DNA of 63,111 nt, filler included, from Hausera hauseri (Eukaryota), in NCBI GenBank assembly GCA_046269625.1. It is 11 parts of 11 records of this genome, joined end to end, with 100 filler letters (N's around TTAATTAATTAA, not from the genome) between each part and the next. Parts side by side here need not be neighbours in the genome. Positions count along the whole stretch, not along the records: positions 40,268 to 50,543 come from JBJURY010209966.1; 10 more parts are not named here. One strand, written 5' to 3'. The notes under the pieces are model-generated. The model had not been told where the DNA came from and made no database searches. It worked only from the letters and a program-made list of their open reading frames with translations. Of this stretch, positions 4,591 to 50,543 are shown piece by piece (within the stretch, counting starts at the first letter, position 1; each line of letters starts with the position of its first letter). Both the position numbers and the translations under genes were made by a program.

Positions 4591-7500
4591 TAGATACTGG
4601 CGCACAAGTTAGTATACTTAGTGAAAGAGTGTACCGGATGTTAAAGATCAAAGGAAAATTGATAAAGCAAGATATTGATTTGAGATCAGTGTCCGGAAGA
4701 ACTTTGAAAGTTTTAGGAAAAACCACACTGGAATTTCATATCGGAGAAAAGACCATGAAACATAATTTTCTAATAGTGAGAAATATGTGTCGCAGTGCAA
4801 TAATAGGAAGAGATTTTCTTAGAAAACACAATGCACGGATTTATTTTGACTTAAAGAAAATAAGAGTAGAAGACCAATATGTGGATCTGGAGGATGATAT
4901 CCACATTGCATCCATCGTACGAGTGAGAAAAAAGATAACCATGAAGCCGAATTCCGTAAATATTGTATTGGCGTCATTGAAGAGAAACAGTTATTGGCAT
5001 GAAGGGGAAAACGTAGCAGTAACACCATTAGATGAGAAAGAAATAATAGAAGAGCCAGGATTGCAAACGGTGTGTGGAATTGTGAAATTAAACCCGAAAA
5101 GAGAAATACCGGTGATGATAGTCAATTATACGGGAAAGACGATAACATTACAAAAAGGATGCGTTGTAGCGAAAGTGGACAAAACCGACACATCGATATG
5201 TGAAGCTGTGAATATGACCGAGAAAAACAAGAAAGAAAAAATCCAAGAAAAGTTAAATAAATATTGGGAAGAGAAGTCGAGCAGAAGAGCACACCGAGAC
5301 AGAGTTTTGGCAGAAATACGAGAAGGATTATGGAGGCGGAAACGAGGACAGTTGGTAGCAGAAATCAGCCAAGATGACGAGAGAACCAAGAAGTTGTTAG
5401 AAACTTTAAAAGTAGATGAAAAACATAAAACCTGCATAGAGAACTTTGTGAGAAAACATGCAGATGTTTTCGCAATATCAGACATGGAACTGGGAAGAAC
5501 ACAAACAGTCACCATGAAAATTGAGACAGGAGACCACGCACCCATAAGTTTAAAGCCGTACAGAACACCCCTCGGAAATAGAGAAGTGGTAGAGAAAGCG
5601 GTGGAGGAGATGTTACGAGCGGGTATTATTGAACGTACCAGGTCGGAATGGTCCTTTCCTGTCGTAATTGTAACGAAAAAGGATGGCAGCCACCGATTCT
5701 GCGTAGATTATCGGGCATTGAACGCCATCACCAGCAACGTCAGCTACCCGATGCCGTTAATTGATGACATCTTGGGACTGCTAGACGGAACCACTTACTT
5801 TACGACACTGGACGCAAGGTCGGGCTTCTGGTGCATACCGATGTCCCCGGAGGCAAAGGCAAAAAGTGCGTTTTGTACACATACAGGCCTATATGCCTGG
5901 AATGTAATGCCATTTGGACTGAAGGGATCACCAGCGACATATATGTCTCTGATGAATATAGTACTAGAAGGAATGCAGGCATACGCCCTAGCGTACATTG
6001 ACGATATACTGATTTTTACAAAAAGTGACATAAAAGACCACTTAGAACATGTGGAAAGGGTATTTGACAGACTCAGAGAGCATAAAGTAAAATTAAAACT
6101 AAGCAAATGTGAGTTCCTAAAGGAGGAAACGAAGTACTTAGGTTTCGTGATCACTAGAGAAGGAGTGAAACCTGACAGTGAGAAAGTGGTAGCCATCAGG
6201 TCCATGGCAGCACCAAAAACTACCAAGGAAGTACGCGGATTCCTCGGCACTTGCGGGTATTATCGGAGGTTCATCCCGAATTTCTCCGTGATAGCTGAGC
6301 CATTGGTAGCATTAACAAGGAAATTTGCCAGATTCCGTTGGGATGAGCACTGTCAAAAGGCTTTTGAATATTTGAAAGAAAGTTTAACCGTGGTACCCTT
6401 ACTAATGTACCCGAACACGAATAAAGAATACGTGTTATATACGGACGCTTCAGAATTCGCAGTAGGAGCGGTACTAGCCCAGAAAGATGGTGAGGAAATA
6501 GTGCAAGGGAAAAAGGTTGATAAGGAAAAACCAATTTATTTCCTATCACACAGATTGACAAAATCACAACGAAAATGGGCTGTGACAGAGAAAGAAGCGT
6601 ACGCAATTCATTACGCCTTACAGAAATTGAATTTTTATCTGCACAACAGCAAGTTTACAATTAAGACCGACCATATGCCATTGAAGGCCATGATGAGAGC
6701 AGATGTGCAGAACAAACGAATCCAGCCGTGGATTTTGAACTTGCAAGGCTATAATATGAATATAGAATACATACCGGGTCCACAGAATACTATTGCAGAC
6801 TTACTGTCAAGATTGCCGGACAAAAGTAACAACTATGAAGAACCACAAGAAGAGAATATAGAAGAAGGAACACCGGAGATTGATGAACACACGCTCCAAA
6901 TTTCGGCAGTCAGTTCGACCGAAGCAAAAGTAGATAAAACGGAAAATTCAGTAACAAAACCAAGTGGGGAAGATGAAAATAGGATAAATATGAAAGTAGA
7001 ACAACTAAAAGATGTTGAGCTGCACATCATTATTGAAGATTTGAAATCAGGGGTAGAGGAAAAGTCAAAGAAGTGGAAGAAATTTATGTTGGATGACGAA
7101 GAATTATATCGAGTGGGTGGTGAAGAAAAACGAAATTTCCAATTGTGCATTCTGCAACATCTGAAGACGTGGGTAATTCAACAACACCATGACAAATTAG
7201 GACATATGGGTAGAGACAGAACTACAGAACTAATAAGTCGGAAATATTATTGGAAGAATATGTTACAGGAAATCGGAAATTACATCAAGAACTGCGAACC
7301 CTGCAAGTTAAGAAATATGGAGGTATTAAAACATCCGATTCAGGAACCAGATTACGCGAGATTCCCCATCGAAAAAATAAGTCTCGACCTTTCTGGACCA
7401 CACCCGTTAACAGCCTCAGGGAATAAGTACATCCTACATATAGTTGACATCTATAGCGGATGGCCAGAGCTGTATGCCGTACCGGATAAGACAGCGGAAA

Positions 7501-9035
7501 ATATTGTAGACATCTTGGTAGGCAAATTTATAACTCGATATGGATGTCCCAGAATGATTGTTACAGATAACGGCAGAGAATAAGTGAATCATATAATGAA
7601 AGAGACATTGAAAGAGTTAAACGTAAAGCACATAAGAACATCTGTGTATAACCCGGGTGCGAACGGAATCAACGAGAGGCAACACGTCACGCTGTACGAC
7701 ATTATCGCCAAATACACCCAAGACCAGCCAAAAGAGTGGGACCTGTATCTAGGACAAGCAGCCATGGTAGTACGAGTAATGGAAAATGGGAGTAGGAAAT
7801 ACTCGCCATACGAGATGTTATTTGGCAGAGAACCCATTCTTCCCGTCGACAATCTGCTACGACCTAGACTGAAATACCAGGGAGAAGAATTTCATCAGTA
7901 TCTAATCCAAAAATTACATGAAATTACTGTGAAAGTCAGCAGGAATTTGAGAGAAGCTTTTCAGAAGAGGAAAAAGTATAGTGAACCGAAAACGGTACAT
8001 CAAGAATTCGAGGTGGGAGATAAAGTATATTACCGTAAGAATAAGAAAAGCTCTAAGCTTGAAAATAATTGGATACCGGGATATAAGATACTAGAGAAGA
8101 AAGGACCAATAACCTACGTAGTGATCAACCAGCAGACGGGACATGAAACAACAACTACCACAAGTCAGCTCAGAAAAGACGACCGAATGTTCCCGGAAGA
8201 ACCTAAAGCAGAAAATAAGGGCAATATACGTAAATCAAGGTATGTAGTGCCACCAAACGAAGGAAGTGAATCAGAAACATCGACGGAAACGACCCAAAGT
8301 GAAGAAGACAAGTCAGAAGAAGAAAGCGAAAGCGATACTCGTTACGAAATAGCAATCCCATACCGAACTAGAAAGGAAACCGAACAGAAAGTAGATAAAG
8401 AAACTAATACGTCGGCACCGTATCAGAATACTAGAGCAGCAGCAAGAAAAAGATTTGAAGAAGCGCGTACACAACAGTTGAAAAGGAGACGAACCATGCG
8501 AAGTAATTCATCAGAAGAAAGTGACATACCAATATTAGAAAGAAAAAGACGCTTGGAAGATCGTGAGCGAAGGGAAGCACAAGAAGCTTATGGAGATGAT
8601 GAAGACACGCAAGAAGAAACACAAGACGAACCGGAAAATAGTGGTTCAGAGACTTTGGTGGAAGACACAGAAACGGAAACATCAGAATTAGACCAGATGG
8701 TGAGGAGATTAAAGAGGTTACATGATTCGGGCACATCAACGGAAGATGAACCCAGAGCCAAAGTCACTAGACAAGCAGCCCTTAGAAGAATGCATATGAA
8801 AAAGGCCGAAGAAATTAGGCGGAAACAGGAAAAGGAAAGAAGACAAACAGAAGCTCGTATAGAGGAAATACACAAGACAGTCGATAGAAAAGACAAAGAA
8901 GTTCAAGATATAAAGGAAACTATTGAAAAACTGGCCGATGGTAAAAGGAAAGCAGATATAGAAGTTAGCGAACTACAGGGCAAAGTAAGCGAAGCAGAAG
9001 CACATTCCGCCCAACTAGAAAAAGAAAACGCATAG
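4587..9035 (+). pseudogene. pol: Pol (protease-RT-RNase H-integrase) with one in-frame stop at 7581-7583 and a long acidic/coiled-coil C-terminal extension
   Basis: IDTGAQ and IIGRDFL (PR); RFCVDYRALN, MPFGL, YIDD (RT); TDAS, EKEAYA, TDH (RH); HH..GH..C..C and D..D(NGRE*)..E (IN); GP(I)TY motif; 7584-9035 continues in the same frame. Confidence 0.95.
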
Positions 9036-9338
9036 AAGACGGAGATCATAACGAAGCTCAGAAAGCAGTTGACAGAAATAGTCAGCCAAAAAGAGCCACC
9101 GTGCAATGTAATGAAGAGAAGTGTGAAACACAAGAAACAAAGAGAAGAAGAAGATATGGAAAACGAAGACGCAGAAGAACGTACGCATAGTAAAAGTCGA
9201 CCAAAAATAATAGCGGAAGTGGAAGATAAGCCACGGGGTAAAAGCCAACCCGAGCAAACGACCATAATAGACAAGGCAGAGGGTATGAATACTTTACATC
9301 TGGTTATGCAAACTATGTTGAAGTTAACACAATAGTAA

Positions 9339-11341
9339 TTGTGTGGATATATAATTCCACAGAGAACAATGAATACACATCAGTTGATGGTCACAATCCT
9401 TACAAGCTGGATAGTTGTCGGTTTGACACAAGCTAGGAAAGAGATTTTCCAATATGAAGGTATGGTGTTTGTAAAAATCAAAGATGTACACCAAATAAAA
9501 GCCCATTGGAAGTTGGTAATAACACAATCGCTGAAGAACTTCCAAGAACAAGTAATCGATGTAGAGGAGAAACTAGAAAATGCCAGCAGACTGCTACATG
9601 CAAGAGCATATATAAGCAATAAGAATCAAAAGACGAATGATGCCACATATTTTCAAAGGATGATATTAGAGTCAGAAAGAGAAGTGAAACAATGGAAAAA
9701 TGAAGTTAGGGGCATAAACGAAAGACTGATTTGGCTTAATAGAGGTAGAACCAAGCGAGCCATCTTACCGTTCGTGGGAGAGCTCTTAGATACGCTCTTT
9801 GGTACAGCAAAGGAAGATGAATTGCAAACTATCAGACAAAGCGTCCATATAATAAATGGTAACATTGAGGTTATGAAACATGTGATGGAACGTAGTATTT
9901 CGGCAATAAATATATCCCATCGAGAAATAGCGGAAAATAGAAGGAAAATTAATGAATACACCACGCATATATCTAGAATTGAAAAGTACCTAACAGAAAT
10001 GGAGAATAATGTAGAAAATGTAACGAAAGAACTTGAAACCAAAATAAATGAGTTAGGAATGCTAATGTCAATTGAAGGCAGATGTAGAGAGTTGGTAAGA
10101 CGAACCGGAAGAGTTGCTAATAACATTGAAGATATTCTAAGCCTAACTACCTTGAAGAGACTAAACGTGAATGCTATAAACCCGACAGAATTGAAAGTGA
10201 TCTTAGAAAGTATCCAGAGGAATATACCACGCAATTTACGAATGCCGATTAACTTAGAGGAACATCTAATTGACTACTACGAACAACTAGAAACGGAAAC
10301 ATATATCAACAGAGGTCAATTGATACTGATAATGAACATCCCATTGGTAGATATCACCGAAGAATATGAGTTGTATGAGGTTACGAGTATTGGAAAAGTG
10401 AACGGTAATGACGGAAATGAACAGAGTGAATTGTGGGAAAACTACTATGTCAGAAACATCCCAGAAGGCAAGGCACTATTAATTAATAAAGCGAACACCA
10501 TGTTCACAATACTACCGCAGGAAGAGTTCAGCAAATGTAGTGAAACGAACACCGAGTACTGTGAAATAACGAGACCAATGTATAATACCAAGCAAACAGA
10601 ATCATGTGTACTGAATACATATGAAAGCAACGGAGAAAGAGTTGAGAAATATTGTCGAAAAGATTTAGTTAGGAGAATGCAAACACCGCAAGCGACGAAG
10701 ATAGGCAAAGATATATGGATGATAATTACAAAGACAGAGTTGAAAGCTCAAAAGTTATGTGAGCGTGATGGGAAACGGAATACTGAAACAATACATCTAA
10801 AGAGGAAGTTAGAATTACTTCAGTTGGAAAAGGGATGCTCTCTATACTCAAGCGAAATAGTTATCAATGAGCCGCAGATGTTTGACTCGACAGTAAATGT
10901 AGCGACACCAAAGATGAATACTTTGAATATCAACATGAACGGGCAACAATGGAAAAACACAGACACAGAAACAGTGGTAAAGAAGATGGAGCTTGTATTT
11001 GGAAACCTCTAACACACTTAAAAGCAATGGAGAAAATAGATTACAACGACATGCTTAATGAACTAGAGCAATTTCAAGCCATCAAGGAAGTAGATGAGAG
11101 AAACACCACGACGACCATTAGTGGCATCATTATTGTAGCAGTAATCCTATTATGTGGAGTTGTTGTAGGGCTTAATAAAAAGTTTAATTGCTGGAAGAGA
11201 ATTGAGGAACTCTATCAGAAACACAAGGAAACCCAGAAGTTAGATCAAGCAGAAAAAGGACAGTCCCCAACCAAAGACGTCAGAATAGAATATCGGGATA
11301 TTAAGTCAATATACCCAAATCTGACTATACAAAAGGTGTAA
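9339..11341 (+). pseudogene. env: Envelope fusion glycoprotein, baculovirus F / errantivirus Env type, with one frameshift near 11000
   Basis: Signal peptide; furin site RTKR then fusion peptide AILPFVGELLDTLFGTA; heptad repeats; Cys pattern; TM helix ISGIIIVAVILLCGVVVGL in ORF 10949-11341. Confidence 0.9.
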
Positions 11342-26037: not shown

Positions 26038-28599
26038 CAAAGAAATCACAGCGGTTTTGTAATAACACTGTTTATTTGTATCTAGTATCTAAGTCAGTTT
26101 TTCTCTACCGACTTTGCATATTCACGCCTTCATCTTACAGTCCTACCATCTTCCTTTTATATCTTTTTGGTTGTTTCCACGTTGCACCTTTCAGCATCAT
26201 GGTTGAAATGTGTGTCTTGATTGACATTCTAATGTTATTAAAGATTTCTTTCACTTCCTGTGCCCATCTGTGCCATTCTCTGTAGAATTTCGGTAGAAAT
26301 CACGATGTGGTGTCTGATTTCTATGCAACCTCACCAAATGGCCAAACCATTACATTCAAATTTAAGTATATTCCATACTTCGTTTTACACCTACTTCTGG
26401 CCAAACACCACTAAGTTTCAAAACAACCACAAGCACTAGGAACCGTCGGTAATCAGACTGCTATTCACCCAGAAGTTGACAAAACTTATGCTTGCTCAAA
26501 TTATCGATGGCCATCAAACTCAATTGGCTCTAGAAAATCACTATCATTGCTAAACGAGATGACAACTGTGACTGACATTCTTCCGGAAGATTGTCAGGCC
26601 AATGATTACGGCAGCTTGAAGACTAGTGAATTTTGTAAAACATCCATGGACGATAATATAAAACCAAAGAACGACCCAGCAGAAACAGTTTTTACGAATG
26701 GATTTTCTGATTTATTAGAGAAATTATTTCCTGATGACTCAGTCGACAATTCTTATGATTCAGGTGAAGTTCAGACATTACCGAATCCTTTGGCATATGG
26801 TAATCACTGGCCACATCCATTGATCACGCCAGTTACCGAGACTCTGGATCAGCATTCTGATTCACAAGATCTCAAAATATTGCTAGAATTTTAGTAAAGA
26901 AGCCATGCATATTGAATAAATTAAAGTTTACTACCGCTTCCAGGTTTTCAACCGTGACACACACACAATACATAACAGGGGGAATTACATGTAGGATTGA
27001 AATTTATTGGTAATACAAATAAAAGAAAACGATAATGTGTGTCTTTCACTCCGTGTGTTTTTCTGTGCCGTTCTCGCGATTTCTTCTTAAATAATGGCTA
27101 TAGAAATCGCGGTGTGATTTCTGTGCAACGTCACCAAATGGCTAAACCATTACATTCAAATTTCAGTAAATGTTGTCGCATCCTTCNNNNNNNNNNNNNN
27201 NNNNNNNNNNNNNNNNNNNNNNNNNNNNNNTTAATTAATTAANNNNNNNNNNNNNNNNNNNNNNNNNNNNNNNNNNNNNNNNNNNNCCTAAAACTATTAC
27301 AATTCAATTTATTGAATTATTCTTCTCTAGTTAAATATCCATTTTTCTGATAGTTATCAAGTTATAAGCTAGTCATTCCCTCACACTTTACAGATACTTT
27401 TCGCCAGAATAATATAAAACAAACATTTATTGACATTTCAAATTTCCATATATACGAGTCCATTCGGGCCGATTAATTAATGCTCCCGTTGATTCAATTC
27501 AAATGTTATCATTTACAGTTTAAAAATTTTAATAAACAAAAATAATATAGAAAATAATATAAATCAATGGTGACGACAGCAAAACGAAGTCAATCTGCTT
27601 ACCAATTTCATTTTCATTATTATTATTTCTCAGCGAATTTGTAGCGTCCATTTTCAATTTTTATGAAAGTATAGTAAATCGGATCAAAATTCTTGAACTG
27701 AAAATTGTATTTGGAGAAGACGTAATACCGTATTTCACAGCAACCGTTTATCAATTATTCTAGCATTAATACATTAACATTTATGAATTCAACAACTCGT
27801 TACTCTTTACGAGTTGGATCCTCTAATAGCCAATATAAAATTCACTGTTTAAGAGCGTTATTAATTGTTGTTCTGTTGTGAATTACACGGAGTTTATATA
27901 CTGTTCTGGAAAGATATATTTTTAGAATTTTCATTACTGTATCGTTTCATTCCATTTTTGGAAATAGTCATCCAATTTTCAAAATCATGTGTCATCTAAG
28001 TCTTGTCATTTCTTATTTTTAGAAATTGAATCATCTTAATGTTTCAATTCTCAGAATTATGAATTATTTCATCTAGTATTGGATTTTCAAAAGTGTATAT
28101 TGTTTTATTTGTCAATTCATTTTATTCGTCTAGGTGGCCGTCACCAAAATTTGGATACATTAATTTTACAGATAACAGTGTGATAAAAATGCCCATCATG
28201 TGGGGCTTAACAAGATGAAAATAAAATAAAGGAAATGAAAGGAAAATTAATGATGATGTTTAATGAAATGTACATGAGTATCATACAAAGATTTATGTCA
28301 CATGAAATGTACTTCAAAAATGTTCAGTACAAAACAAGATGAAAATGAAATAAAGTAAATGAAAGGAAATGAAATGTACTTAAAAATATTCAATACAAAA
28401 GTTTATGACACTTCTTTTTAGTCTTCTAAGTGACACTTGTTTTTGGTCTTCTAAGGTATAGTAATCTTCTAACAGACACTTGTTTTGGTCTTCTAAGGTA
28501 TCGTAACAATTGCACATGTACAATACATAACCCTGAGAATTGCCATAATACAATTAGGATCTATTATGGCCACAAATTCAATCGAATCCTTTATTATAT

Positions 28600-31365
28600 T
28601 TGCCCTGTGATGGTGAATACATGCAGTTCTATGAGGATCATAAGGATTATCTGACCGACTTTGCATCAAAATCCAAGAAGATCATATTTAATGAGCATAT
28701 GCCAGTTGCACAGTCCACAGTACAGTTTGCAGCACAGTCCGCAGTGCAGTACGCAGTACAGTCCGTAGTACAGTCCGCAGTGCAGTCCACAGGAATAAAA
28801 TGCCCATCAGGTCCATCAGATGCCTCAGGCTCAACAGGTGTAGCGGCTCCATCAAAAAGCCAAAGACAGCGGCCAGTTGATGCTGCTGCATTAAAGAATA
28901 AAGTCCGCAAATATGTCATTGATGCAGCTGGGCAAAGAACCATCAAGGAGTTCCTGGAATATGCAAAGGAAGAAACAGAGGGGATCCTCCAGGACAATAT
29001 GACTGAGCTCAAGGCCCTTAAGGTTAATATGAAACTTGAGGCCACATACGTCAATGTCGATGCTGAAGAATCAAATAGGGCCTTCAAGACCAAAAATAGG
29101 CCCATATTGGAAAACACAAATATAGCTGATTGGCTGCATGAAGAGCATACAAAGCTGATCCGTAAAACCGATGACAGGCAGGATAAGAAGAGTGGATGGA
29201 CTCGGGCAAACATAAAGAGACTGCTTGTGTATGTGTACAAATACTCTCCCATGCGAGGCAGTTCATATATACAGCTACCGGACTGGATCGCTAATAAAAA
29301 AGCATATGTCAATGCTCTTAATAATGACAACATGTGCTTTATTTATGCCATTCTATCAAAACTTGTAACGGATGTAAACCATGCTTACCGTGTTTCACTA
29401 TATAAGGATGTGCAGAACAACTACAACTTTCAGTTTATCACATTCCCTCCATCCATAGATGAAATCAAGAAGTTCAGCTGCATCAACAAGATATCCATCA
29501 ATATCTTTGAATTGGATGAAGAGAACAAATTCTACCCATTGCAAATATGTGATGCTGAATTGGAAGATCACAGCGATCTGCTCTTACTAGATGATGGTGA
29601 TAAGAAACATTATGTTTGGATAAAGAATTTTGAGCGTTTAGTCAGATCCAAAATAACAAATCATGAACACGAAATCGAAATATGCAAAAGATGCTTATCG
29701 CATTTAAGCGGTAAGTTAGCTGTGGAGAAGCTGAATGAGCATATGATGTATTGTAAAAACAATTATTGTGCAAGGTTAGAATTTCCCGAAGAGGACTATA
29801 TCGAATTTAAGGAATTTGAGAAGATCAAGGCCTCAATTATCATCTATTGCGACTTTGAGATTATTCTCAGACCAGTCCATACATGCAGTCCCAGTCCTCA
29901 ACACAGCAGTACAGCGGCATACCAATACCACGAACTATCATCGTATTGTATGTATGCCAAAGGATTGAACAGTGAACGATATCTATTCAGGGGTCCAGGT
30001 GCAGCAGCACATTTCATGAAGAGACATGAAGACATGGCTCATAAGCTTAAAAAAATGCTGCAAAAACATAAGGACGACATGAGCATGTCTTGGATGCAAG
30101 AACAAGAATGGCGCACGGCAACATCATGCTACTTGTGCGATAAGTCCTTCACCAAGGAAAATTGGAAAGTTAAAGATCACTGCCATTTCATAGGTGCATA
30201 TCGGGGCGCAGCATGTAAGAACTGCAATCTACGATGCAAAACATGCACATATGTGTCTGTAATATTTCACAATCTCAGCGGCTATGACAGCCACTTCTTA
30301 GTCCGAGAATTAGGCAACATTGATGGTAATATAGAAGTGATCTCCAGCAGTGAGGAGAAATATATCACTTTCACTAAGCATGTTGGTAAAATCCGATTTC
30401 GCTTCATCGATAGTTTTCGGTTCATGTCGTCTTCACTGGACAGTTTAGTGAAGACCCTGCCTGCCGAATAACTCAAGGAAACGAAGCGATTATATCCGGA
30501 TACCTTTGAACTAGTTAAAACGAAATGAGTGTTTCCCTATGATTAGATAACATTATGGGAAACACTGGATGAGTCCTCATTACCGCCCAAGGATGGTTTT
30601 TACAGCCATTTATCGGACTGCTATATCAATGATGAGGACTATCAGTATGCTCAAAACGTCTGGCGGGCATTCCAATGCAGATCACTAGGGGAATATAGTG
30701 ATATATATCTTAAAACCGATGTACTACTGCTGACAGATGTCTTTGAAAATCCAGCTCGTTTCTTCATGACTCCAGGGATGAGCTGGGCAGCAATGCTGCG
30801 CTATACCGGTATCAGTCTGCAAATCATTAAGGATTACGACAAGATCCTTATGATCGAAAGAGGCATTAGAGGGGGAATATGCCGAGCCATTCACTCGAAT
30901 ATAGCGAGGCCAACAACAAGTATATGGCTGAATACGACTCAGCAAAGAATTAGTCATATATTTCTTACCTGGATGCCAACAACTTGTATGGATGGGCAAT
31001 GAGCGCCCCATTCCCATACGATAATTTTAAGTGGGTTGAGCATCCTGGAGACATTCCTATCATGGACCTGGATCCTGCTGGAGATATGGCTACATAATGT
31101 TGATGGATTTGGAATATCCGACTTCCATCCACACAAGGCATCAACAGCTGCCTTTCCTCCCTGAAAGCAGGCCACCGCCCCGTGGAAAGCAGAGAAAGCT
31201 GCCCTTCCATTTGGGTAATAGGGAGAGGTATGTAGTTCACTACGTTAATCTCCAGCAAGCAGTTAAACATGGACTCCGCATTACAAAAATCCACAGAGCC
31301 CTCCAATTCAGCCAGTCCATGTGGTTGCAGTCCTACATTGATCTAAACACCAAGTTGCGGACAAA
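28600..31365 (+). pseudogene. Polinton/adintovirus protein-primed DNA polymerase B, disrupted after 30471 and truncated by the contig end
   Basis: GSSYIQLP; DNMCFIYA; YCDFE (ExoI); VKDHCH..YRGAAC..CNL; FHNLSGYDSH (ExoII); FIDSFRFM; ERGIRGG; YLDANNLYGWAMS. Confidence 0.95.
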
Positions 31366-31806
31366 NNNNNNNNNNNNNNNNNNNNNNNNNNNNNNNNNNN
31401 NNNNNNNNNTTAATTAATTAANNNNNNNNNNNNNNNNNNNNNNNNNNNNNNNNNNNNNNNNNNNNGAAAATATTGATCAGCGATGTCCAAACATATTACA
31501 CACCACTAAATACAACTATTCAATGTATGAAATCCCCGAAAATCATACAAAAAGAAGATCCAGAATGCAATTTGATGTGAGAAACATTTACGAAAGTTAC
31601 AAAGACAGTCCAGTAGCCGTATCAATAACCACTCCATATCCCACAAAACGCGAACATGTAGTACAGTATATTAAATATCAAACAGAAATCCAACCGGACT
31701 AGTCCTTGAGCGTAATCGAATTACTCCAGAATTTGAACTTTATTCCACGAGAGAAAGAAGAACCAGAGAAAACATTTTTAGTGAACTTTATTTACGTAAT
31801 TTAGAG

Positions 31807-39012: not shown

Positions 39013-41038
39013 CTAAAACGGAGGTAACGCAATAAAATAATGCAAATCAAAATAAAGGGTCGTACGGTATTTGAACTGTAACATTCACATTCGATCGTTT
39101 TCGTAAAATATTTTTCAGACGAGTATTTGGATTCTGATTGGAAGAGACTGTAATTATAGAGAATAAGATGAAAATACTAAATGCAAATTCGGCAAATTGT
39201 TCTGTAAAATAATTAAAAAGATGCAACATATTAAGTTTCTAATATTTCGATCTTATTCAGATCTTCGCCAGAGAACATCGGTCGGGCAGATATTTTGACA
39301 CGAACTAAGCGATATCTTAATAAGATCGAAATATCAGAACGTTAAACAAATTCTGTAACATTATTATCCTCAAAAAGACAATTATACAAAGTTTATAATC
39401 GAACGATGCCAAAAAAATGTAAATGTGAAATTGCAAGTTGACAAGACGAAATTATGTAGAAATTTCGTTACGTTTGTGTAAGCTTTAAAATGGAAAGTAA
39501 CAGACTGAGCATAAGGAAGAAATTCTGCGAACAGTTTCATCCAATCAATGAAAGAAAAGACAGAGGAAAAGCAAATTGATATTTGCTGAATTATAGATAT
39601 ATGTTTATGACAATTTTTAAACATTTCTAAAAGCAAAGACGGTCACATTCTTTGGATGAAGTTCGTCAGAATATATCACACTGTGACTGTTAAAATGCTT
39701 CGTGAAGTTCAAAAAGCTTGGATATAGCGCCTTCGTGCCTGTGTCGAACACGACGGAAACATTTTTGAACATCAAATTAATTGATATTAGGTATAACACT
39801 TCATATTCATTATAAAATGTTAATACAATTATGTCACTTTTTTGCCTGTTTTTATAGCTTTTTATTATCGAAACTCCCATTGGTGCGTAACTTTTCGGAC
39901 GCACGGTACTTCCATTGCTGAGTCGACCATGAAGCGTGAGACCATGCAAATTTAACTCATTTTTTCTTTGGTTTATTTCGACCATGAAGCCCAGCTTCAA
40001 CTAATCGTTTTCTGACAGTCCAAGCAGATATCGGAGTATCAATTTCAATCAAAATTTCAAGTTGAATGTGTATGGCTTTTTTCGGATCAATATTTGACAA
40101 CTTTGAAAATTTTCGGTCAATTCGAACCTAAGTCTTACGTGGCTTCTGTTTTGGTTTAACGTTTTTANNNNNNNNNNNNNNNNNNNNNNNNNNNNNNNNN
40201 NNNNNNNNNNNTTAATTAATTAANNNNNNNNNNNNNNNNNNNNNNNNNNNNNNNNNNNNNNNNNNNNTTTTTTCATATTATTAATTAGCATTATATTTCG
40301 CACGTCTCCATAACTATTTTTATAGTAAAATTCGTTTCTTTGTTACAAAGTGTGGATAAGGTTAAAAATAATTTTCAGATTCGAATGAAACATAAAATAT
40401 TACCCGTTTTTTCCTGTTAGGAAATGTTAGTCATTAGTAGGAATTTTTGTAAACACGTTTCCTTTAACCCAAAATTCATACTTGTCGATAGTAAAATATA
40501 AATATGATTGAATTATGAAATTATTATTTTAATTTCAGAATCAAACTTCAACGAACAATGCTTTATTGGAAACTAACACAAAGGTAAAAGATATACTGAA
40601 ATCTGAAATATGTCATGTAGTACAAAATCGATCTAAAACTGTCGGTACAAACACATTCATTGATACTGTTTGCCGTTTTACTCAAACTGATTTTTAGAAT
40701 AAAGTAGAATTTATTTTTTATATAATCTTCGTAAAATAATTCCTAAAATTACAACACCAACAGTCGCAACGACTGTTGTTATTGTGCAATAGCTGAAATC
40801 TACATTAATTCAAGAAAATTGATTTAGAATTCTACCATGTTGGAGAATCTGATTCCATCTAAAGCGAAAATAAATTATTGTAATTTAAATGAGTATTTAT
40901 GTCATTGTTTGTAAAAACTGCCAAGAAAAATGTTGGATCTATTTTATCGAGACAAATTAATTCAGCAAATTTATCAAATTATTTACAAACAATTTTCATA
41001 AAATTCATAAATTTCTTTAAAATGTTTAGTTAAAACTA

Positions 41039-41315
41039 CCCCTGGTACTTCTATTTCACCAATTTCATAGTTCTTTAACATCGCCTGAGCATCCTGTGAA
41101 TGACCAATGTTATCAAATGCAAAAGTTGCATCGGTTCCAGCATTTTCCAACAGCACGTCGTCACCACCAGGATGCTAACAAACAATAAATTTGTTAACTA
41201 GATTAACTAAAACTTCAAGTAAAAAACTAGTGACATCATAAACTCTTCCCCGAATCAAAATCCAACAACTGTCTCGAGTATTGTGATTTTGTAAAGTTGT
41301 AAATGAAATTTTCAT
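41039..41315 (-). CDS. Cytochrome b5 heme-binding domain; exons 41315-41214 and 41174-~41039, 39-nt GT-AG intron
   Basis: Spliced product MKISFTTLQNHNTRDSCWILIRGRVYDVTSFLLE|HPGGDDVLLENAGTDATFAFDNIGHSQDAQAMLKNYEIG (HPGG and GHS heme ligands). Confidence 0.92.
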
Positions 41316-42439
41316 GTCTCAATTTTACATAAAAATAAGGCCACATTACGCGGGCAAAGAATATTCTTCTTACATAAACTATATAGATTTATTAGATTTA
41401 CCGTCCAAATAGAACAGCAAAGAACGAATTATCCCGGTAACTGTTTTTGGTCGTTAATTTAATGAATCTAACTTCTTGGAAAGCGGTAAATTCGAAAAGT
41501 TAACTTCCTGAACTACTGGAAATCCATGGATATATTAAATAATTACACTTTAACTGGTTTATGAGTTTCCAAATATATAAATTTCAAAATATTGTCGTAG
41601 GAATACCTATTCTGAAATGAAACTTGTTCAAAGCTTTATAAAATGCTATTTCTTTAAATATTTCACAAACTGACTGTAGTACATGACAAAAGAAATAAAA
41701 ATTACATGATGCTTCATTTTACAATCATAGAATGATCAGTAAAAAGATAAAACAGCGGCTAATTTATAAAAATTAAATTTCGGAATGTTGCATTAGATTT
41801 CGTGTGCATTAAATGCCAAAATTTGTTAAAACTTACGGTTTAAGTTTTGAGTATCACGTTTTAAATTATTCTGTAAAACAACATATGTGAATGTGTATAT
41901 TACACCGTAGTGCATTTTAATCCCAGTCGGAAACTCTTAAAATATTTCAAAATTCCTGGACGTATGCAAAATATTAGATAATTCTAATTTTGCTAAATCT
42001 AATAGTCTCTGTAGTGAAAAATCTTAATCGCAATTTAAAACGACCTTTATATCACAAGCAAGCCACGATGTTTCTAAGCACGTACATAATATATAAAATT
42101 ACGATCGGTTTGCTGGGCAAGGTCGGCAGATGAAAATCCGGAGTATCACCTGACTTCTTATCGATTTATACATTCCAGACAGTTTCTCAAACTTCGTCAA
42201 AGGTTCAAATTAAACATATAATTTATTAATTACAGTTATTGAAACAAATATGTAATTTATGAAAAATAAATAATATTAAATTATTATTTATATTTAAGTC
42301 ATCACTTATAAAAGTATAAAAGAAACCGCGGAAACCTTTACACTTCCAATATACAAACCTAGTAACAAAATTTCAAGGGTAAAAGATAAATTCTAAATAT
42401 AAATATTTTAAAATTCAATAAATATTGTCATACTTAATA

Positions 42440-43333
42440 TCAAAAATTTATATAAATCACATTTAACTTCGAGGTGTTCAAATCTATCGCGACGTTTGGT
42501 AGACGTCTTAATATATCACACCCTAGTACTACATCATCCATCAAATGTTCTATTATAGAAAATTCATGCTGAATGTTTGTCCCATTATTTTAAGATTAGG
42601 ATTCCACTTAAATTTTGGTCCTGATTCTTGTCCGAAAGCTCCTATACTTCCGGGGTCGGTTGCAAGTGGTAGTCGTAATTGATTTCGCAACGTTTTTGGT
42701 ATTGATCCATCTTTTATAAATGATTTCTCTGATCCGGTATCTACTAGTGCGTATACTTCCCAATCGTCAATACTAATTTGGGCGAAAGGTCCATCTTCTT
42801 TTATCTTAGGTTGTTTAACGACGGATATCTTGTACCCATTTATACTAATTTCTGGTGCTTTACTCTCGGCTACTTGTCTTAATTTCTCAATGGGATATAA
42901 TCCATTATTTACACTCTCGATGCGGCGTATTGATTAGCGGTTCTCGGTTGTTTTGGTTATGGAAGGATTGCATTCGTGGATTATCCCAAATTACTGATTT
43001 AGTTTCTATATGCCGTGAAATCCTTGGAGAGTATATCACTCTGTGGTCATCCACCGATTGGCGGCATAATTCAGATTTTTCCTTAATTCGGTACATGTTC
43101 GTAACACACCGTATTGTTTTGTCACTTCATAGGGATCTTCGTAGCTGAAAGGCTTCCGAACCACTTGTCAAGTACGCAAACGGAATTGCTTCCAAATTGG
43201 CTTGTATTTGGCGACCAAGTTCCTCAAATTTTAATTGACTAGTTTGAAATCTCAACAAATCACGCGCCAACTTCTCCTGCGTAACCAAATTTAACATATG
43301 CCATAAATTAATAGCTCGACTTTCATTAATCAT
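42440..43333 (-). pseudogene. Retropepsin (A2) aspartic protease preceded by an unknown N-terminal region; one stop and two frame changes; no RT follows
   Basis: GPFAQISIDDWEVYALVDTGSEKSFI (DTGS at 42741-42730), then after a frameshift HEFSIIEHLMDDVVLGCDILRRL; ORFs 43333-43127 and 43096-42905 share one frame. Confidence 0.8.
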
Positions 43334-44029
43334 CTAAAACGAAAAAACATTTAAATTAAAATAATATATAAGAAAAAACATTTAAATTAAAAATATTTAA
43401 ATTAAAATAATATATATATTATTTAACTCCTATTCGGAGCCTGCCTTCACAGATCGCGCGTGATCTCAGAGGCCGACCACCCGAAAACTGAATGGCCTTG
43501 AAGGATGACTCGAGCTCCAAAAAAAAAAAATTTATAAAATTTTTATAAATATACATATTTATTATTATCATTTTTTTCTGTATCATATTATTATTTGAGC
43601 CCTACGGCTACATTACATATTTAACCAAAGTACAAATTAAGACCACTTAAATCAATATTCACCAAGTGTATAGGGTCTCGGACAGCCCATTACACATAGA
43701 AAACCCGATCAATGTACTGCCCGATAACTGCAGGCTAATACCAGCCGAAGAAATCGATTAGTAATCAACTAATCGCACCGGCGCCAATCACCTAACACAT
43801 AGTGCCCGACAACTGCAGGCTAATTACAGCCGAGAAAAACACTTGAAAAAATCAATAATACCACTTGGTAACACAAAATAAAATAACACACAGCCTAGCT
43901 CAATACAATTAAAGTACAGGCTTAACATTTATATATACATATTGAGCTGGCTCAATCTTTATTTAAAATTCTTTTCTCTAAGTTTGAGTAAAAAATATTA
44001 TATATATATATTTTTAAAATATATTTAAA

Positions 44030-45398
44030 ATGGACAAATTAGAAGTACAACATTTGATGCAGCAACCAGAATACAATGCTGAGAATAACGAAAAGTAAAT
44101 TTTTTCATTTATTTATTTTATTATTTATTTCTTAAAGAACTTATAGACGTAACTTCCATATACTAACAGAGAACGATATTCCTCTCTTCCCCGAAAACGC
44201 TTTTGACAATGATGTTTTGGAATCATTACAAAGCAAATTTCGAGAACAAATCAATACACTAGCCATGCCACCGAGAGTGGCAACTTTCCGCCATTTCATG
44301 CTCGTCCATAAAATAGATGACGACTTCAATGGTAGATATTACGCAGAATCACGATATCTACCATTGTATTACAAATATCATTGGTTCATACGCATCCAGG
44401 AAGAAATTTCAAAAGGTGGAAATAAACACTTACACGTGTTAATTTACACACCCCAACCTTACAGATTAAAATCTATGTGGAATATTTTGGGGTCTTACAT
44501 TCTCCCTTTCAGATGCGATGTCCAAAAAGTATATTTTACTATTATCATTAATATTATTATTAATATATAGGTTTATTTATACCATTACAAGCCGACTTTT
44601 GAGGGCGCAACTGTAGCTCAATTCGGTGTACCGCCTTTCAACGTTTTGCGGGATAATACCAGTCGCAAAGCGGTTTACCGCATGTTTGACGAGGCAAAAA
44701 CAGCCTCCGAAGCCCTCGAGGTAATGAAGGACGGCGATAGAGCCGAATACGTTACAAAAAACAAATTATTGTGCAACTACGTTCGTAATAAATTCAGAGA
44801 ACGTTTCGTTCCCAAGAAAGAATTTCAATTCTTAATAGAACCCATCAATTTCCGACCCGACAAAGGCATTAACAGCGCAATCATTTTCGGCGCTTCGAAC
44901 ATTGGTAAAACATCTTTTGCTCTGAGTCACGGAAATAATCCACTGATCCTTCATTCTCTTCATGATTGCCCGGTAGATTGGACGGGCGAATACGATCTTA
45001 TAATACTCGATGACGTGGGCTTCCACGATGCGCCACCCGATATTTTCCTCTCAATCATCCAATGCAACCACGTTAATGACAACAGAAGCATACGTGGGTT
45101 GTACAAAAGCGTCATCATTCCGTCCACAGTTCCGCTAATCATGACTTACAACAGCGAAAACACATTCTGGCCTTACAAAATGGACCAGTTACAAAAAGAA
45201 GCTTGTATAAAACGGCTAAGGATATATCAATGCGGAACTACTATGTTATATAAATCAGAACAGCCCAGAAACAATTTCGTAGTGGAAAATACAGTCAACG
45301 TTGGAGATGAAATTGCTAAGAAAAGGGTGAAAATAACTTTGTGCCGCAATCCAGACACACAAGATTGGCAAGCAGGCAATCCAGGCACCAGCCAATGA
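44030..45398 (+). CDS. rep: CRESS-DNA-virus-type Rep (HUH endonuclease + SF3 helicase), ~424 aa; exons 44030-44094, 44147-44528 and 44571-45398
   Basis: Two phase-compatible GT-AG introns; motif I-like RHFMLV, motif II EEISKGGNKHLHVLI, motif III YHYK..QFG; Walker A GASNIGKT, Walker B IILDD, motif C IMTYN. Confidence 0.9.
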
Positions 45399-45452
45399 AA
45401 ACTTACTATCTTTGTGTACTATAAATAGATATTAGTCCGTGTTTTATTTCTT

Positions 45453-46088
45453 ATGTCTGATAATCTTAGTATGTCTAATATTTGTTATGAATTAATAAGT
45501 GCTTACAGTCATTGTATTTCCACACAGAAATTAATAAACAATTTATGTGATTCGATTTATACCGAAAAATATGATGACTATCTAAATCTTATGCATGCTA
45601 ATGCTTTTGTTGGAATTACTCTCAATCATATTTACAATATTATGCAGCAATACGAAAATCTGATGGATAAATTACCTATAGTTGAACCAATGCCTACCCA
45701 AGGAAAAATGCGTGCCTACTTATCCGATGATCCCTTCATTACATACGACAGTACTCAATCAGCTAGATCTATTTGTAATGAACGATTCCAAGAATGCCGG
45801 GTTATGGATCCTAACACTACCTCTTTAGAGGCGCCGAATACTTGCTTCCTATGCTGCAAGCCTAAGTCAAGTATTCCGCATACTTTAAATGTATTTAATA
45901 GTCGCAAGAAGGATTCGTGGGACCGATCATTCTACATTCATACAGAGAATATAGAGGAACAACCTACTATGAACCACCTAGAACAGGCTTTATTATCCTG
46001 CCACCTGACTGATACTCCGATATCTTCGTTGGCAACATGTTTTTTCATATTATTTGTGGGATGTAGAAATAATATTAATATTAAATAA
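45453..46088 (+). CDS. Unknown 211-aa protein directly downstream of Rep
   Basis: Open ORF starting 55 nt after the Rep stop; helical N-half, CFLCC..H segment; no capsid-like features seen. Confidence 0.55.
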   Translation: MSDNLSMSNICYELISAYSHCISTQKLINNLCDSIYTEKYDDYLNLMHANAFVGITLNHIYNIMQQYENLMDKLPIVEPMPTQGKMRAYLSDDPFITYDSTQSARSICNERFQECRVMDPNTTSLEAPNTCFLCCKPKSSIPHTLNVFNSRKKDSWDRSFYIHTENIEEQPTMNHLEQALLSCHLTDTPISSLATCFFILFVGCRNNINIK

Positions 46089-47145
46089 TTGTATATTGAA
46101 ATCCACGCTCAATCGTCAATTATCTTAAAAAATATCTTCAATGGAAATACTGCGTTTAAATAATGACTTATTTGAAATACAAGTTTTTATGTATTAGAGT
46201 CTTTTTATGGATTTCGTAAATCCCCACACTACAGCGGCTAATATTATTAATGAGCATTATATTTTGTACATACCTGACTGATGGTTATAAAAACTCTATG
46301 TAACAGTAAGATTATAATTGCTTGTAAATACGCGATTATAGAAATCGAGTTTTGGGAAAAATTAGTTTTAGCTATGAAATATGAATTACAATTATTTATT
46401 ACAAAATGCGTACAAATATTCGAAGGCAATCTAAAATCAACTATCAAGAAACATTTGGGTATGGTTTACGTTTGATGATTCAGAGTGCATACGATGTATC
46501 AGAATCAAATCTGATTGGTACCTGGAAGTTTTAAGTCATCAGGAGCGTCGATAAAAACTATTTCGAAGGAAATTCAAATTGTTATTTGCCCATTCGAAAA
46601 TGCGATAGAATATATAGTATAAATCTGAAAAATTGACAGAACAAGTACGATTCAGGGAAGTATGGGCCATATAGACTAGCAGTAAAGTCCCTATTAAAAG
46701 TGGTTATTTTATTCAACTTATTGTTTCATATGTAACAAGATGTAGTTTTTAGTTTGACGTTAAACCTTTTTTAAGGTACTTCTCATTATGGTTATGTTCT
46801 TTTGTTATCGTTAAATTAATCGTTAAAACATTAGAGATACTATTAATGATATCGGTTAAAGAAAATTGTTAATTAAATGGTGTTCAGATAGGTAATACGT
46901 AGACCTGTTGCCATATTTAGAAACAAGAACTTATTTATTGTTTGAGAACATTTATTTGTGTTAAAATTATTCTCTATTGGCTAAATTATGTAAAGATATT
47001 TGCAATAGTCGATTTTAATTCCACATCATCATTTTAAACAAAAGAGGTGAATTACATTATAGAAATAGGGGAAATGAAGTAAAACAAAACGTTAAAACGA
47101 AACAGTAGATATAGTGAAAAAAATATTTGCTAACAAAGTCAAACT

Positions 47146-47575
47146 AACGCTATTGGAGCCTTTAAATGTTTTGGCATTTCGCACTTGTTCAAATTTCCCC
47201 TAATACGTTTAAGAATTTTGGACTGATAAAATTTTCATTCAATTTCTCGAGCTAATGGTCTTTTAATGTTCGATTTGTAGTATTTTCAGGAAGAATTGTC
47301 AAACTAATAAGTATTCATCTTATTAATAATCGCATATTCTCTCATGTATACATTTAGGTTATGCACATGAGTGATCACAAAGCATAGACTGAATATTATA
47401 TGAATATTTTTATTTTGACAGAACATCAAGGAAAGGATATATATCGAATATTAAAGGAATATTAGCTCGAGAAAAGTATTCAAAATTTTGTCATTGTTAA
47501 AAAATCGTAAAAATCGTGAGGAAGAGTTGAAAAAGTGCGAAATAGTCAAACGTTTAAGAATCCCAATTGCGTTAT
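47146..47575. mobile_element. MITE / long inverted repeat
   Basis: 47146-47257 is the diverged reverse complement of 47461-47575 (TTTCTCGAGCTAAT / ATTAGCTCGAGAAA; TTTCGCACTT / AAGTGCGAAA). Confidence 0.75.
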
Positions 47576-48689
47576 TTTGGCTTTCTTGGTAAAACGTTTT
47601 TTAGGATTATTAATCAGCATTATATTTGCACCTCTCCGACTATTTGTTATAAACAGCCTACATTTACAGTACAATTCGTTTCCTTGTTGGTTTGACGTAA
47701 CCATTTTTATTAATTTATAATTGGGGAAAATGGGCGGTTTTCAAAATCTATCTCAAATATTTTTATAAATATTTTAAATGTTCATTTTTCAATATTTTTA
47801 CCATGTTTGTAATTGAAACAGCTATAAAAACCCGTTTTACATACTCGTCGAAAGTGTACTGTAGTCAGAAGTAGTATGAATAATACAATATAATTATAAT
47901 TAATTAATTATTCATAGAATAGGGAATAAATCAGCATTTGATTTCAAAATGAATTAAGTAAATATTGAATCAACTTATTCGACAATGCTGATGATTATAA
48001 ACTTCAGCAACAGGACTTTTTTCGTCTTAAGTTCGAATTTTGTGTGTGCTTTGAATTTATCGTTGTGTATTGGTAATTAGATGTATGCATTAAATTCTTT
48101 GTATTACCTATGGACAATGTACTCTATCAAATCATTAATACGGATTAATACTTCTGTAACGCACACAAAATCAAGTTTATTGCGTCTATTCGTTACCTGA
48201 CAACATCTACAATTGCCACAATTATGAATTTGACATACAGGCAGCCCCTGTATAATGCGGTGAAAATTTTGAGACGACCCCATAGAACTCGTGCCAGTTT
48301 CACAATAACGTGGTTTTTCCCCCTACATACATAACTTATTTTAAATATCCACTTAGCTTGTAAGTATTCGAAATTATCGTAATTTATACAGATTTTAGTT
48401 TGAGATAATTTTTTCAATTTATCTTGAATTAAAATTTTCTTTTGTTAATAAATAATATTTTTAATAGCATAATCTAACCTTAATAAATAGTATTCGAAAA
48501 AAGGTTCTGTGGTGTCCACATGGGGGGGAGGTTTTGTTTCTGTCATCAATGTTCGTATTTTTTAAACTTTGTAGAACATTTATGAAATGCACATAAATTA
48601 CATTTTTAAAAAAAAAGAAATAATTGAATGGACACAGAATTAGCAAATATTTGCATAATTAATTTTAAAAAGTCATAAATATAAACCGT

Positions 48690-48766
48690 TACAGATGCAT
48701 CCCCGTGTAACGCGACTTCATTACAACGCGGAACCGTAAAACCGCGTTGTACGGGGTCCGGCTATA
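48690..48766. mobile_element. Tiny pogo/Tigger-like MITE remnant
   Basis: CCCCGTGTAACGCG ... CGCGTTGTACGGGG inverted repeat. Confidence 0.5.
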
Positions 48767-49295
48767 CTTATAATTTCATTTAATCAAATCACGGTTAGAA
48801 GGTGTGTACTTTTTTGTTTCGCGTTGGGGAATCCACTAAACCCTAGGTGCCCTTTATTATATTCGGTAATTTGTATTTAAGTGCATTTTAAAATTGTAGG
48901 ACAGAAAAATAGCAGAATTAAAGCAGAAAATAAAGAATTTGAAACAGCAGGTGACTTTTAATTTCAGAACTTATATTTTTGAATTCTTGTTGAGATTTTC
49001 ATTTTTCTTTATAAACTGTTTTCTATATATTTATTGGTATAACAAAAACATATTGACATATTTTAAATATGCTGTATGATTTAAAGAAAATCTGTATGAT
49101 TTCAACATTAACGCCTTACATTGTATAGGAAACTGTTTTCTTCATATAATATGTTTCACACTCACAAAAAATTTCGTGACATTTAGTGTCTGAAATAATT
49201 ACGCAGTTCATTAAGTTTGGTTATGAAAGTGACCACTGCTCTTGAAAATATTGAACAATCAGAATAAAGACATCTAGAAACCGTTAGTTTGAGCA

Positions 49296-49710
49296 GAAAC
49301 GAGACAGTTGAAATTTCATTATACGCTGAGAAACATCGCTACGAATAAAAATTCTCAAGTCATATTAACTCATTAGAGGTCAACTGCTTACAGACAATAT
49401 TAACAACGGAACTATTATTGTATTGATCAAATTCCAATCGTGAAAATATTCATGTACGTCGAATTTTAGGAAACGTGTTTTATCAATAATGAAGCCAGAA
49501 AGTTGTCAGAAATATCTATGTAACATGAATATTTCCACTATCGGGAGTTGGTCACTACAATGAAAGTTCCGTTGTTTGTATTGTCTGTAAGTAGTTAACT
49601 TCTGTTGAGTTAATATAACTTGAAAATTATCTTCTTTTTCAGAATTTGGTTAAAATATTTGTAGGCACTGTTTTCTCAGGGTATAATGGAATTTCAACTG
49701 TCTCGTTTCT
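49296..49710. mobile_element. Foldback/MITE palindrome of ~415 bp
   Basis: AGAAACGAGACAGTTGAAATT at 49296 and AATTTCAACTGTCTCGTTTCT ending at 49710; the inner arms also pair. Confidence 0.85.
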
Positions 49711-49747
49711 ACTATATGTGTAATTTAGATGTGTTGTAATTTGCTAT

Positions 49748-50543
49748 ACACAGTATGGCAATAAAGTTCCCGGACTTGTTTTATTATTTCACCAGGAATA
49801 ATAACACAATAATGCAAACTGCAGTGAATAAATCTAGGATGCCTTGTGCATGTCATGTACAAATGTTATCTTTGCATCATTAGTCAGGAATGAGTTAATC
49901 ATAATTTCATTTATTGTGATTTTGTGTTATGTTTAGCTTTTAATATGGAACAAAGTGCAGTAATAAAATTTTGTTTTAAAGTACGAAAATCGACCACAGA
50001 AACGTTTCACATGCTGAAGCAAGCATGTGGAGATGAAGCTATGTCCAGATCAAGTACTTCTGAATGGTATAAAAGATTCCAAAATGGTCGAGATTGTTTA
50101 GAGGATGATGAAAGTTCTGGCCGTCCTTCAACTCGCGAGAAGATTATGTAGTGAACTTCGTGCGTGCTCTTCTTGCAGAAGATGGCAGTTTGACACTCCG
50201 TGAAATGAGTGAACGTTTGAAAATTAACAAAGAAAGCATTCGATTAATAATTCGTGGGGATTTGAACAAACGGAAGATTTGTTCTCGGTTTGTTCCTCAC
50301 TTTTAACCAATGAGTGATTTGGTAGAAACAAGTGATGCTTCAGAGAATTTTTTGGATTCAACCGTTACTGGTGATGAATCGTGGTGTTTTAAATACGATC
50401 CACAAACAAAGCGTCAATCATCAGCCTGACTTAGTCCTGACAAGCCACGACCAGCAAAGGTTCGAATGCAAAAATCGCATGTCAAAACGATGCCCATTGC
50501 TTTTTTGATGGAAAAGGAATTGTTCATCATGAATTTGTTCCAT
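49748..50543 (+). mobile_element. Mariner transposon, decayed and truncated by the contig end
   Basis: TIR-like TACACAGTATGGCAATAAAGTTCCCGGACT; MEQSAVIKFCF..WYKRFQNGR..LEDD.SSGRP; FVPH; VTGDESW..YDP.TKRQS. Confidence 0.92.

Follow-up and report, generated by a model that had tools for sequence, protein, structure and literature searches.

An intact Rep protein of the CRESS type is encoded in the Hausera hauseri window (the whole 63,111-nucleotide stretch of DNA analysed here, which consists of contigs joined by N spacers), and we tentatively read it, at slightly less than an even chance, as what drives a capsid-less selfish element, about 2.7 kb long, that would copy itself in the host genome by a rolling-circle mechanism. 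The gene lies on a 10.3-kb piece of the window, at positions 40268-50543. The original prediction had described a viral-type Rep with two tiny host-style introns; the multi-copy family to which this Rep belongs, a second gene beside it and the absence of a recognisable capsid gene are new here.

The Rep gene and its protein

The following features were assigned to the Rep gene:

44030..44094, plus strand: Rep exon 1, 21 codons and 2 nt; N-terminal extension without counterpart in the family profile
44095..44146, plus strand: predicted intron 1, 52 nt, GT-AG, 88% AT
44147..44528, plus strand: Rep exon 2, with a helical extension, an internal ATG at 44265, motif I at about 44289 and HUH motif II at about 44427
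44529..44570, plus strand: predicted intron 2, 42 nt, GT-AG, 90% AT, between motifs II and III
44571..45398, plus strand: Rep exon 3, with motif III (YxxK) at about 44580, oligomerisation helices and the SF3 helicase
Helicase motifs of exon 3, plus strand: Walker A at about 44889, Walker B at about 45009, motif C at about 45150 and the conserved Arg at about 45213

Judged from its motifs, the predicted protein is a deeply divergent HUH (Y1) and SF3 Rep of the CRESS-DNA virus type. In the profile alignment, motif II (HLH) and motif III (YHYK) both aligned to the family motifs, and the YxxK signature was found in 109 relatives. Motif I aligned to RHFMLVH in exon 2, a degenerate form in which the T of the family is replaced. 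Walker A, Walker B, motif C and the downstream arginine were all kept, leaving the C-terminal SF3 helicase complete. The earlier expectation of about 424 residues with all catalytic motifs thus agreed with the number of codons and with the presence of the motifs, with the qualification that motif I is degenerate. A Gemini_AL1 match in exon 2 (Pfam, E=0.013) was below the curated cut-off.

When exon 3 was compared with 1.84 billion representatives, 280 relatives were recovered at E ≤ 0.001, and the identity to exon 3 was 21-36% among the 150 of them that were listed. On 3 of 30 relative clusters looked up, the names were a CRESS-DNA virus Rep, an ant protein and 'hypothetical protein'. The named viral relative was the Rep of the bird-associated Periparus ater CRESS-DNA-virus sp. 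(QTE03536.1), and an uncharacterised protein of the ant Temnothorax longispinosus, encoded on a 25-Mb contig, fell in the same Rep group; the latter is probably an unrecognised endogenous CRESS Rep. PCV2 Rep (7lar) was the best solved-structure match of the Rep family profile. The top viral structural matches of the model were unclassified CRESS Reps, and in the PDB it matched SF3 proteins, AAV Rep68 and Vientovirus Rep among them. A quick tree of 94 rows, built without reference members of the named cressdnavirus families, placed the window Rep in no starred set and on an end branch with a length of 2.3 changes per column. Exon 3 gave no match in a word-indexed protein search, no related locus among viral and metagenome contigs, no significant match among PDB sequences, and no match at E ≤ 0.01 among 72,556 plasmid records.

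Two predicted introns in the Rep gene

The two introns originally proposed, 44095-44146 (52 nt) and 44529-44570 (42 nt), were both recovered with GT-AG ends and 88-90% AT, and they were the sole such stretches in the gene. In agreement, 40-nt windows with at most 5 G+C occurred in 44030-45398 only at 44082-44148 and 44521-44590, i.e., at both gaps. An alternative acceptor at 44137 would shorten intron 1 to 43 nt with the phase unchanged. The three Rep exons add up to 424 codons, and besides the two gaps no stop or frameshift was detected. GT and AG each made up less than 5% of the dinucleotides in nearby non-coding DNA. The 39-nt intron of the neighbouring cytochrome b5 gene, used originally as a size reference, was also confirmed (41175-41213, minus strand, GT..AG). 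Collectively, both gaps are likely to be tiny spliceosomal introns.

Intron 2 was strongly supported, with GT-AG ends, a host-like size and a frame restored by its predicted removal. As had been claimed, it lies between motifs II and III, with HLH at about 44427 in exon 2 and YHYK at about 44580 in exon 3. Its length preserves the reading frame, but translation through it would stop at the TAG of its acceptor. With a profile built from 135 relatives, the window protein being left out, the version skipping intron 2 (exon 2 + X + exon 3) scored 179.9 bits and the retained version 172.7 bits. The distance from the motif II His to the motif III Tyr was 37 residues with the intron skipped and 51 with it retained; among the 124 relatives having both residues (11 of the 135 lacked one), this spacing was 37-39 in 63 and at least 51 in only 2. 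An alignment-guided model with intron 2 retained had a mean pLDDT of 79.6, with the HUH sheet, the helices and the helicase visible, and the pLDDT fell to 55-63 over residues 121-140, the stretch corresponding to the retained intron. A single-sequence fold of exon 3 alone was unusable (pLDDT 34.6). Ciliate-type read-through of the intron 2 TAG was rejected, as it leaves a 14-residue AT-rich insert and the 51-residue spacing that 2 of 124 relatives attain.

Support for intron 1 was moderate, below that for intron 2. The internal ATG at 44265 places 54 residues ahead of motif II, the family median being 53.5, and the start at 44030 places 115 there, a length reached or nearly reached by 7 of 124 relatives. 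The ATG at 44265 is likely the ancestral viral start. What precedes it, namely exon 1, intron 1 and 39 codons at the beginning of exon 2, is therefore an extension that homology does not require. This extension, of 61 residues before the ancestral start, looks coding: its GC varied with codon position as in coding DNA (0.57/0.10/0.38 in exon 1), a helix was predicted in the model at residues 21-38, and 3 of 3 differences found there in one paralogue contig were silent (P 0.01-0.03). Since no ATG occurs between the upstream stop and 44265, the extension is translatable only via intron 1.

Joints skipping intron 1 or intron 2 were not detected among the 6 and the 15 of 71 contig joints listed, in runs whose library type is unrecorded and with the low-complexity intron 1 stretch left out. 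Some paralogue contigs end at about 44544, inside intron 2, with no listed joint that skips it, and this hints that those copies keep intron 2.

Setting of the locus

On the same 10.3-kb piece, Pfam also identified the cytochrome b5 gene (E=1.5e-11), part of a retrotransposon protease (42553-42933) and, near 49945, a mariner fragment. The Rep is flanked by the decayed retrotransposon and other repeats. The cytochrome b5 gene supplies the host size reference for introns:

41175-41213, minus strand: cytochrome b5 intron, 39 nt, GT..AG, outside the element

Contigs of both public sequencing runs examined (X1 and X2) cross the upstream flank of the Rep unit. We took this Rep copy as chromosomal because it shares a contig with an intron-bearing cytochrome b5 gene and the mariner fragment, and because its upstream flank is crossed by contigs of both runs. 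No single piece in run X1 or X2 covers the span from the Rep to cytochrome b5. An Rfam search of the Rep contig gave no match. The host is probably an animal; for scale only, the intron lengths reported for Gyrodactylus salaris have modes near 32 and 58 bp (PMC4040987).

Several other features were observed in the window. Two long imperfect palindromes, at 47117-47602 and 49292-49713, are 66-70% self-complementary over 420-490 nt and are likely foldback or MITE-type elements; the one at 47117-47602 is very high-copy in run X1, with a depth above 1500. The start of a short high-copy repeat is present in three copies, 80-83% alike, at 40268-40324, 46243-46291 and 47597-47651, and the copy at 46243-46291 begins directly at the downstream edge of the Rep unit. 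A Ty3/gypsy element occupies 2811-11012; besides gag and pol it has a 557-codon ORF located where env would be expected. Fragments at 28558-31417 match endonuclease VII and protein-primed DNA polymerase B, and we take them to be Polinton-like. Other pieces of the window carry a CPSF2-like gene and an AA15-like gene, the latter with an E value of only 0.0024.

The repeated unit and searches for an origin and a capsid

Contig breaks and depth placed the repeated unit at about 43530-46240 (about 2.7 kb), with approximate ends. Upstream of the Rep, the following elements were found:

43715..43753, plus strand: 39-nt direct repeat, copy 1; candidate Rep-binding or nick site
43800..43838, plus strand: 39-nt direct repeat, copy 2; candidate Rep-binding or nick site
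43892..43952, no strand assigned: imperfect inverted repeat of 13 bp, ahead of the Rep start; may be an origin or a promoter structure

The two 39-nt repeats are 85% alike, each with a 4-bp stem and a 6-nt loop. A hairpin-repeat pattern, itself derived from these two copies, had 2 matches in the window against 0.03 expected, and 0 matches in metagenome and viral contigs. The fold of 43892..43952, one of 7 hand-picked stretches, had a z of -3.05 and was equalled by 0 of 200 shuffles. An exact 12-nt direct repeat at 41752-41763 and 46231-46242 has a 7-nt core in common with the upstream hairpins; it mismatches the depth boundaries and may be due to chance.

No NANTATTAC nonamer origin was found in 43000-46600, where only small non-canonical hairpins were present upstream of the Rep. 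The capsid of cressdnaviruses is usually a jelly-roll protein with an Arg-rich arm. When 25 capsid-like ORFs, hand-picked from viral loci of relatives, were compared with 132 six-frame pieces of 42900-47200, no match was obtained at E ≤ 0.05, a search with low power for a very divergent capsid. A circularising joint was not seen among the 6 contig joints listed, and the window copy is linear within the host contig. In 26 viral loci of relatives, the Rep was intron-split in none (its breaks were contig ends), NANTATTAC was present in 21, and most had a capsid-like ORF. One of these viral contigs (L022:283-4102) carried a tandem array of Rep-capsid units that differ slightly from one another, two of them complete and one incomplete, and may be an assembly chimera.

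A second gene downstream of the Rep

Behind the Rep, in the same orientation, a second gene (gene 2) was delimited as follows:

45453..45870, plus strand: first coding segment, starting at 45453 or 45642; end rich in Cys; no Arg-rich capsid arm
45871..45908, plus strand: predicted intron, 38 nt, GT-AG, phase 1
45909..46012, plus strand: predicted last exon, in a frame different from that of a 219-codon ORF

Gene 2 was covered by paralogues in both runs, one of them 86% identical over 45626-46008. Of the 11 listed differences at 45940-45992, 4 were silent in the frame 45902-46012 and the others were mostly conservative (Y-F, R-K, E-D, I-V); read in the frame of the 219-codon ORF, 2 were silent and H-L, E-K, N-I and H-R changes appeared. 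The 219-codon ORF was therefore rejected as the product of gene 2 for its last third, as the paralogue differences fit another frame. The GT-AG gap at 45871-45908 joins both frames, so gene 2 is probably spliced; an alternative acceptor at 45901 would need a different donor. Two X2 paralogue pieces both start at 45909, and a loose end in X1 starts behind 46009, one base ahead of the gene 2 stop. Taken from these alignments, gene 2 probably has 110-173 codons after splicing, a cluster of cysteines among them, and it is conserved in the paralogues.

For the 219-codon ORF, no homologue was found by word-indexed protein search or Pfam, and Pfam assigned no capsid family to gene 2. A DinB match (Pfam E 0.007-0.013, below cut-off) was taken as noise. 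Given its orientation behind the Rep in a unit of ordinary CRESS size, gene 2 could be an unrecognisable capsid or other viral gene.

Copies of the unit and selection on them

The two public runs containing the Rep stretch bear different organism and study codes, and the window may derive from X1. In run X1, a contig identical to 44955-46053 had a depth of 44, compared with about 22 on the flanks and 8-14 on the cytochrome b5 side, contig depth not being copy number, as the search tool itself warns. The depth of about 22 on both flanks suggests that part of the excess came from a larger segmental duplication. At 80% likeness, X1 contained several diverged copies, about 80-92% identical and with depths of 3-18. 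Their contigs showed 30 differences in 364 letters (depth 18), 71 in 378 (depth 3), 48 plus 15 gaps in about 310 (depth 14) and 54 in 386 (depth 4), and at one position the same alternative letter was found in up to 6 X1 contigs. A second species is an unlikely source of the 92%-identical copy, as this copy had a depth of 18, more than the 8-9 summed over cytochrome b5. As is expected of any transposable element, multiple copies were thus present, in the form of several diverged contigs and raised depth, and these need not all be chromosomal. The paralogue contigs were seen as alignments, and some may be free circles or damaged copies.

The 40 differences listed, out of 359, were the best supported and hence biased to shared changes; exon 3 accounted for 23 of them, gene 2 for 11 and exon 2 for 3, and a further 3 lay outside genes. 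In exon 3, 21 of the 23 were silent, with 0.22-0.29 expected per change (P<1e-9). At one loose end, 11 of 30 letters differed, yet the residues were kept in 10 of 10 full codons, and at another 7 of 10 residues were kept, the changes being I-V, I-V and T-S (both by eye). Among the 12 of 22 indels listed, the only ones within the Rep frame were a compensating pair in the last ten codons. By this pattern of substitutions, the paralogues appear to be under purifying selection on either side of intron 2. Purifying selection among copies is equally expected from repeated insertions by a living virus population; thus, selection among copies cannot separate a selfish element from viral insertions.

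What the Rep unit may be

If the unit is a capsid-less selfish element, the host spliceosome would remove the 52- and 42-nt introns from the Rep transcript, and the Rep would bind the upstream repeats and hairpins. The motif III tyrosine would then nick one strand, the SF3 helicase would unwind it, and a single-strand copy would be released or transferred and re-inserted elsewhere, with gene 2 possibly acting as an accessory factor. The ancestor would have been a CRESS virus, from which the capsid was lost as the lineage acquired introns of host size and the N-terminal extension.

The same unit could instead represent endogenous insertions of an unsampled CRESS-DNA virus, or of a satellite-like replicon of this host, an account we regard as possible, if doubtful. 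The tiny introns would be those of the living virus, spliced by the host, and gene 2 would encode an accessory protein or a divergent capsid; alternatively, the capsid would reside on another component. At about 2.7 kb, the unit is similar in size to contigs of relatives (2-3 kb), the closest relatives that bear a name are capsid-encoding viruses, and silent-site divergence among copies fits a virus under selection. Cruciviruses are reported to have both predicted spliced Reps and capsid genes (PMC7468197), CRESS-derived insertions are found in flatworm genomes (PMC10269781), and up to about 60 copies from multiple invasions have been described in the salmon louse and Varroa (PMC3198968). Viral insertions fit less well, however, with a gene 2 of only about 110-173 codons that has neither an Arg-rich capsid arm nor capsid similarity, with the lack of a canonical nonamer stem-loop, and with an intron-split Rep in 0 of 26 viral relatives. 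The three predicted host-sized introns, the 61-residue extension before the ancestral start, and several near-identical intact copies, as judged by depth, also speak against them.

Host-type introns and an added N-terminal helix would likewise be expected of an ancient captured Rep that was domesticated and then expanded as a host family by segmental or tandem duplication, e.g., as a DNA-processing or antiviral protein. Strong purifying selection, the long branch of 2.3 changes per column and the occurrence of this locus in two runs that carry different organism labels agree with such a history, and avipoxviruses are reported to carry captured Reps under purifying selection (PMC10193959). We nevertheless consider domestication improbable: the catalytic motifs, described as often lost in captured poxvirus Reps (PMC10193959), are all kept here, the upstream repeats, hairpins and linked gene 2 travel with the Rep, the Rep sits between a decayed retrotransposon and other repeats, and one run contains many diverged copies. 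That the locus is a decayed viral insertion, with both AT-rich gaps being microsatellite-like insertions rather than introns, is very improbable. Both gaps do contain short tandem AT repeats, no spliced form was observed, and homology does not need intron 1. Against this, GT and AG occur in both gaps exactly where the frame and the motif spacing demand, and each is rare (below 5%) among nearby non-coding dinucleotides; no other stop or frameshift interrupts the 424 codons, and the sequence flanking gap 2 is under purifying selection in the paralogues on either side.

These considerations bear on the two broader proposals of the original prediction. The nuclear, host-sized introns and the intact Rep gained support. 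The introns do not prove long nuclear residence, since transcripts of CRESS viruses also undergo splicing in the host. Of the two roles proposed, a transposase-like gene fits better, because there are several diverged copies with almost only silent differences in one run and a conserved second gene beside the Rep, and a single domesticated gene is unlikely.

Comparison with known systems

Reps of unclassified CRESS-DNA viruses (Cressdnaviricota) are like the window Rep in combining a Y1 HUH nuclease, oligomerisation helices and an SF3 helicase in one chain, and all their Rep motifs and their unit size of about 2.7 kb are also found here. The window Rep differs from them in being at most 36% identical among the relatives listed, on an unplaced long branch, and in having two predicted introns, one of them inside the nuclease domain, and the 61-residue extension; the element differs in being chromosomal and in that no capsid-like ORF or NANTATTAC was found in it.

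Multi-copy endogenous CRESS Reps in eukaryotic chromosomes were described in 2011, when self-excision and reinsertion by the Rep were proposed (Liu et al. 2011, PMC3198968). Those sequences are multi-copy, as here, and the word 'intron' is absent from the main text of that paper. In the geminivirus-like transposon of Tuber melanosporum, the Rep is reported there to be interrupted and to be accompanied by transposase ORFs and terminal inverted repeats of 37 bp (PMC3198968), whereas the window Rep is intact, predicted to be spliced and without an adjoining transposase. Replitrons, like the window element, have a eukaryotic Y1 HUH gene related to CRESS Reps and hairpins near their ends, but they are described as lacking a helicase, as having short terminal direct repeats and as occurring in plants, algae and protists, and the window Rep has a full SF3 helicase (PMC10288648). 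Helitrons are animal rolling-circle transposons with a nuclease-helicase fusion, as here; theirs is a Y2 Rep with an SF1B helicase, and the window Rep is Y1 (one YxxK) with SF3 and far smaller (PMC10288648). The pCRESS plasmids are capsid-less HUH-SF3 replicons integrated in chromosomes, and they differ from the window element in being bacterial and site-specifically integrated, as described in PMC6668415 (Kazlauskas et al. 2019).

Introns are also reported from other Rep genes. An intron interrupts the Reps of genomoviruses, in which splicing is predicted, and of maize streak virus (PMC11463337, PMC6186406), and 36 crucivirus genomes have predicted spliced Reps, with the helicase motifs mostly in the second exon, and two have predicted spliced capsid genes (PMC7468197). 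In some of these cases an in-frame stop interrupts the Rep, as here (PMC7468197, PMC11463337, PMC6186406). The HUH gene of the transposon Replitron-1 has two introns (Craig 2023, PMC10288648). The premise that gemini- and genomovirus Reps have at most one intron considered those viruses alone and was too narrow. In the descriptions of spliced Reps that we consulted, we found neither a pair of tiny introns nor an intron placed between motifs II and III. In the open literature without supplements, no description was found of an intron-bearing endogenous CRESS Rep or a Rep-SF3 transposon of such a layout.

It is somewhat unlikely that the element represents an undescribed group of animal rolling-circle transposons, which would have a CRESS-virus-derived Y1-HUH and SF3 Rep, spliceosomal micro-introns and a partner gene, and would form a third eukaryotic type of HUH transposon beside Helitrons and Replitrons, a living intermediate between virus and transposon.

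Significance

If the virus reading is true, the Rep would belong to a deeply divergent CRESS lineage tied to its host via intron size, and it would show that ORF-based virus surveys can miss such intron-split Reps. As described, both eukaryotic groups of HUH transposons are without the CRESS nuclease-SF3 fusion (PMC10288648), and the 2011 proposal that endogenous CRESS Reps mobilise themselves came, in that paper, with no worked example driven by the Rep alone (PMC3198968). An intact, spliced, multi-copy and capsid-less family would make the idea of self-mobilisation testable in one genome.
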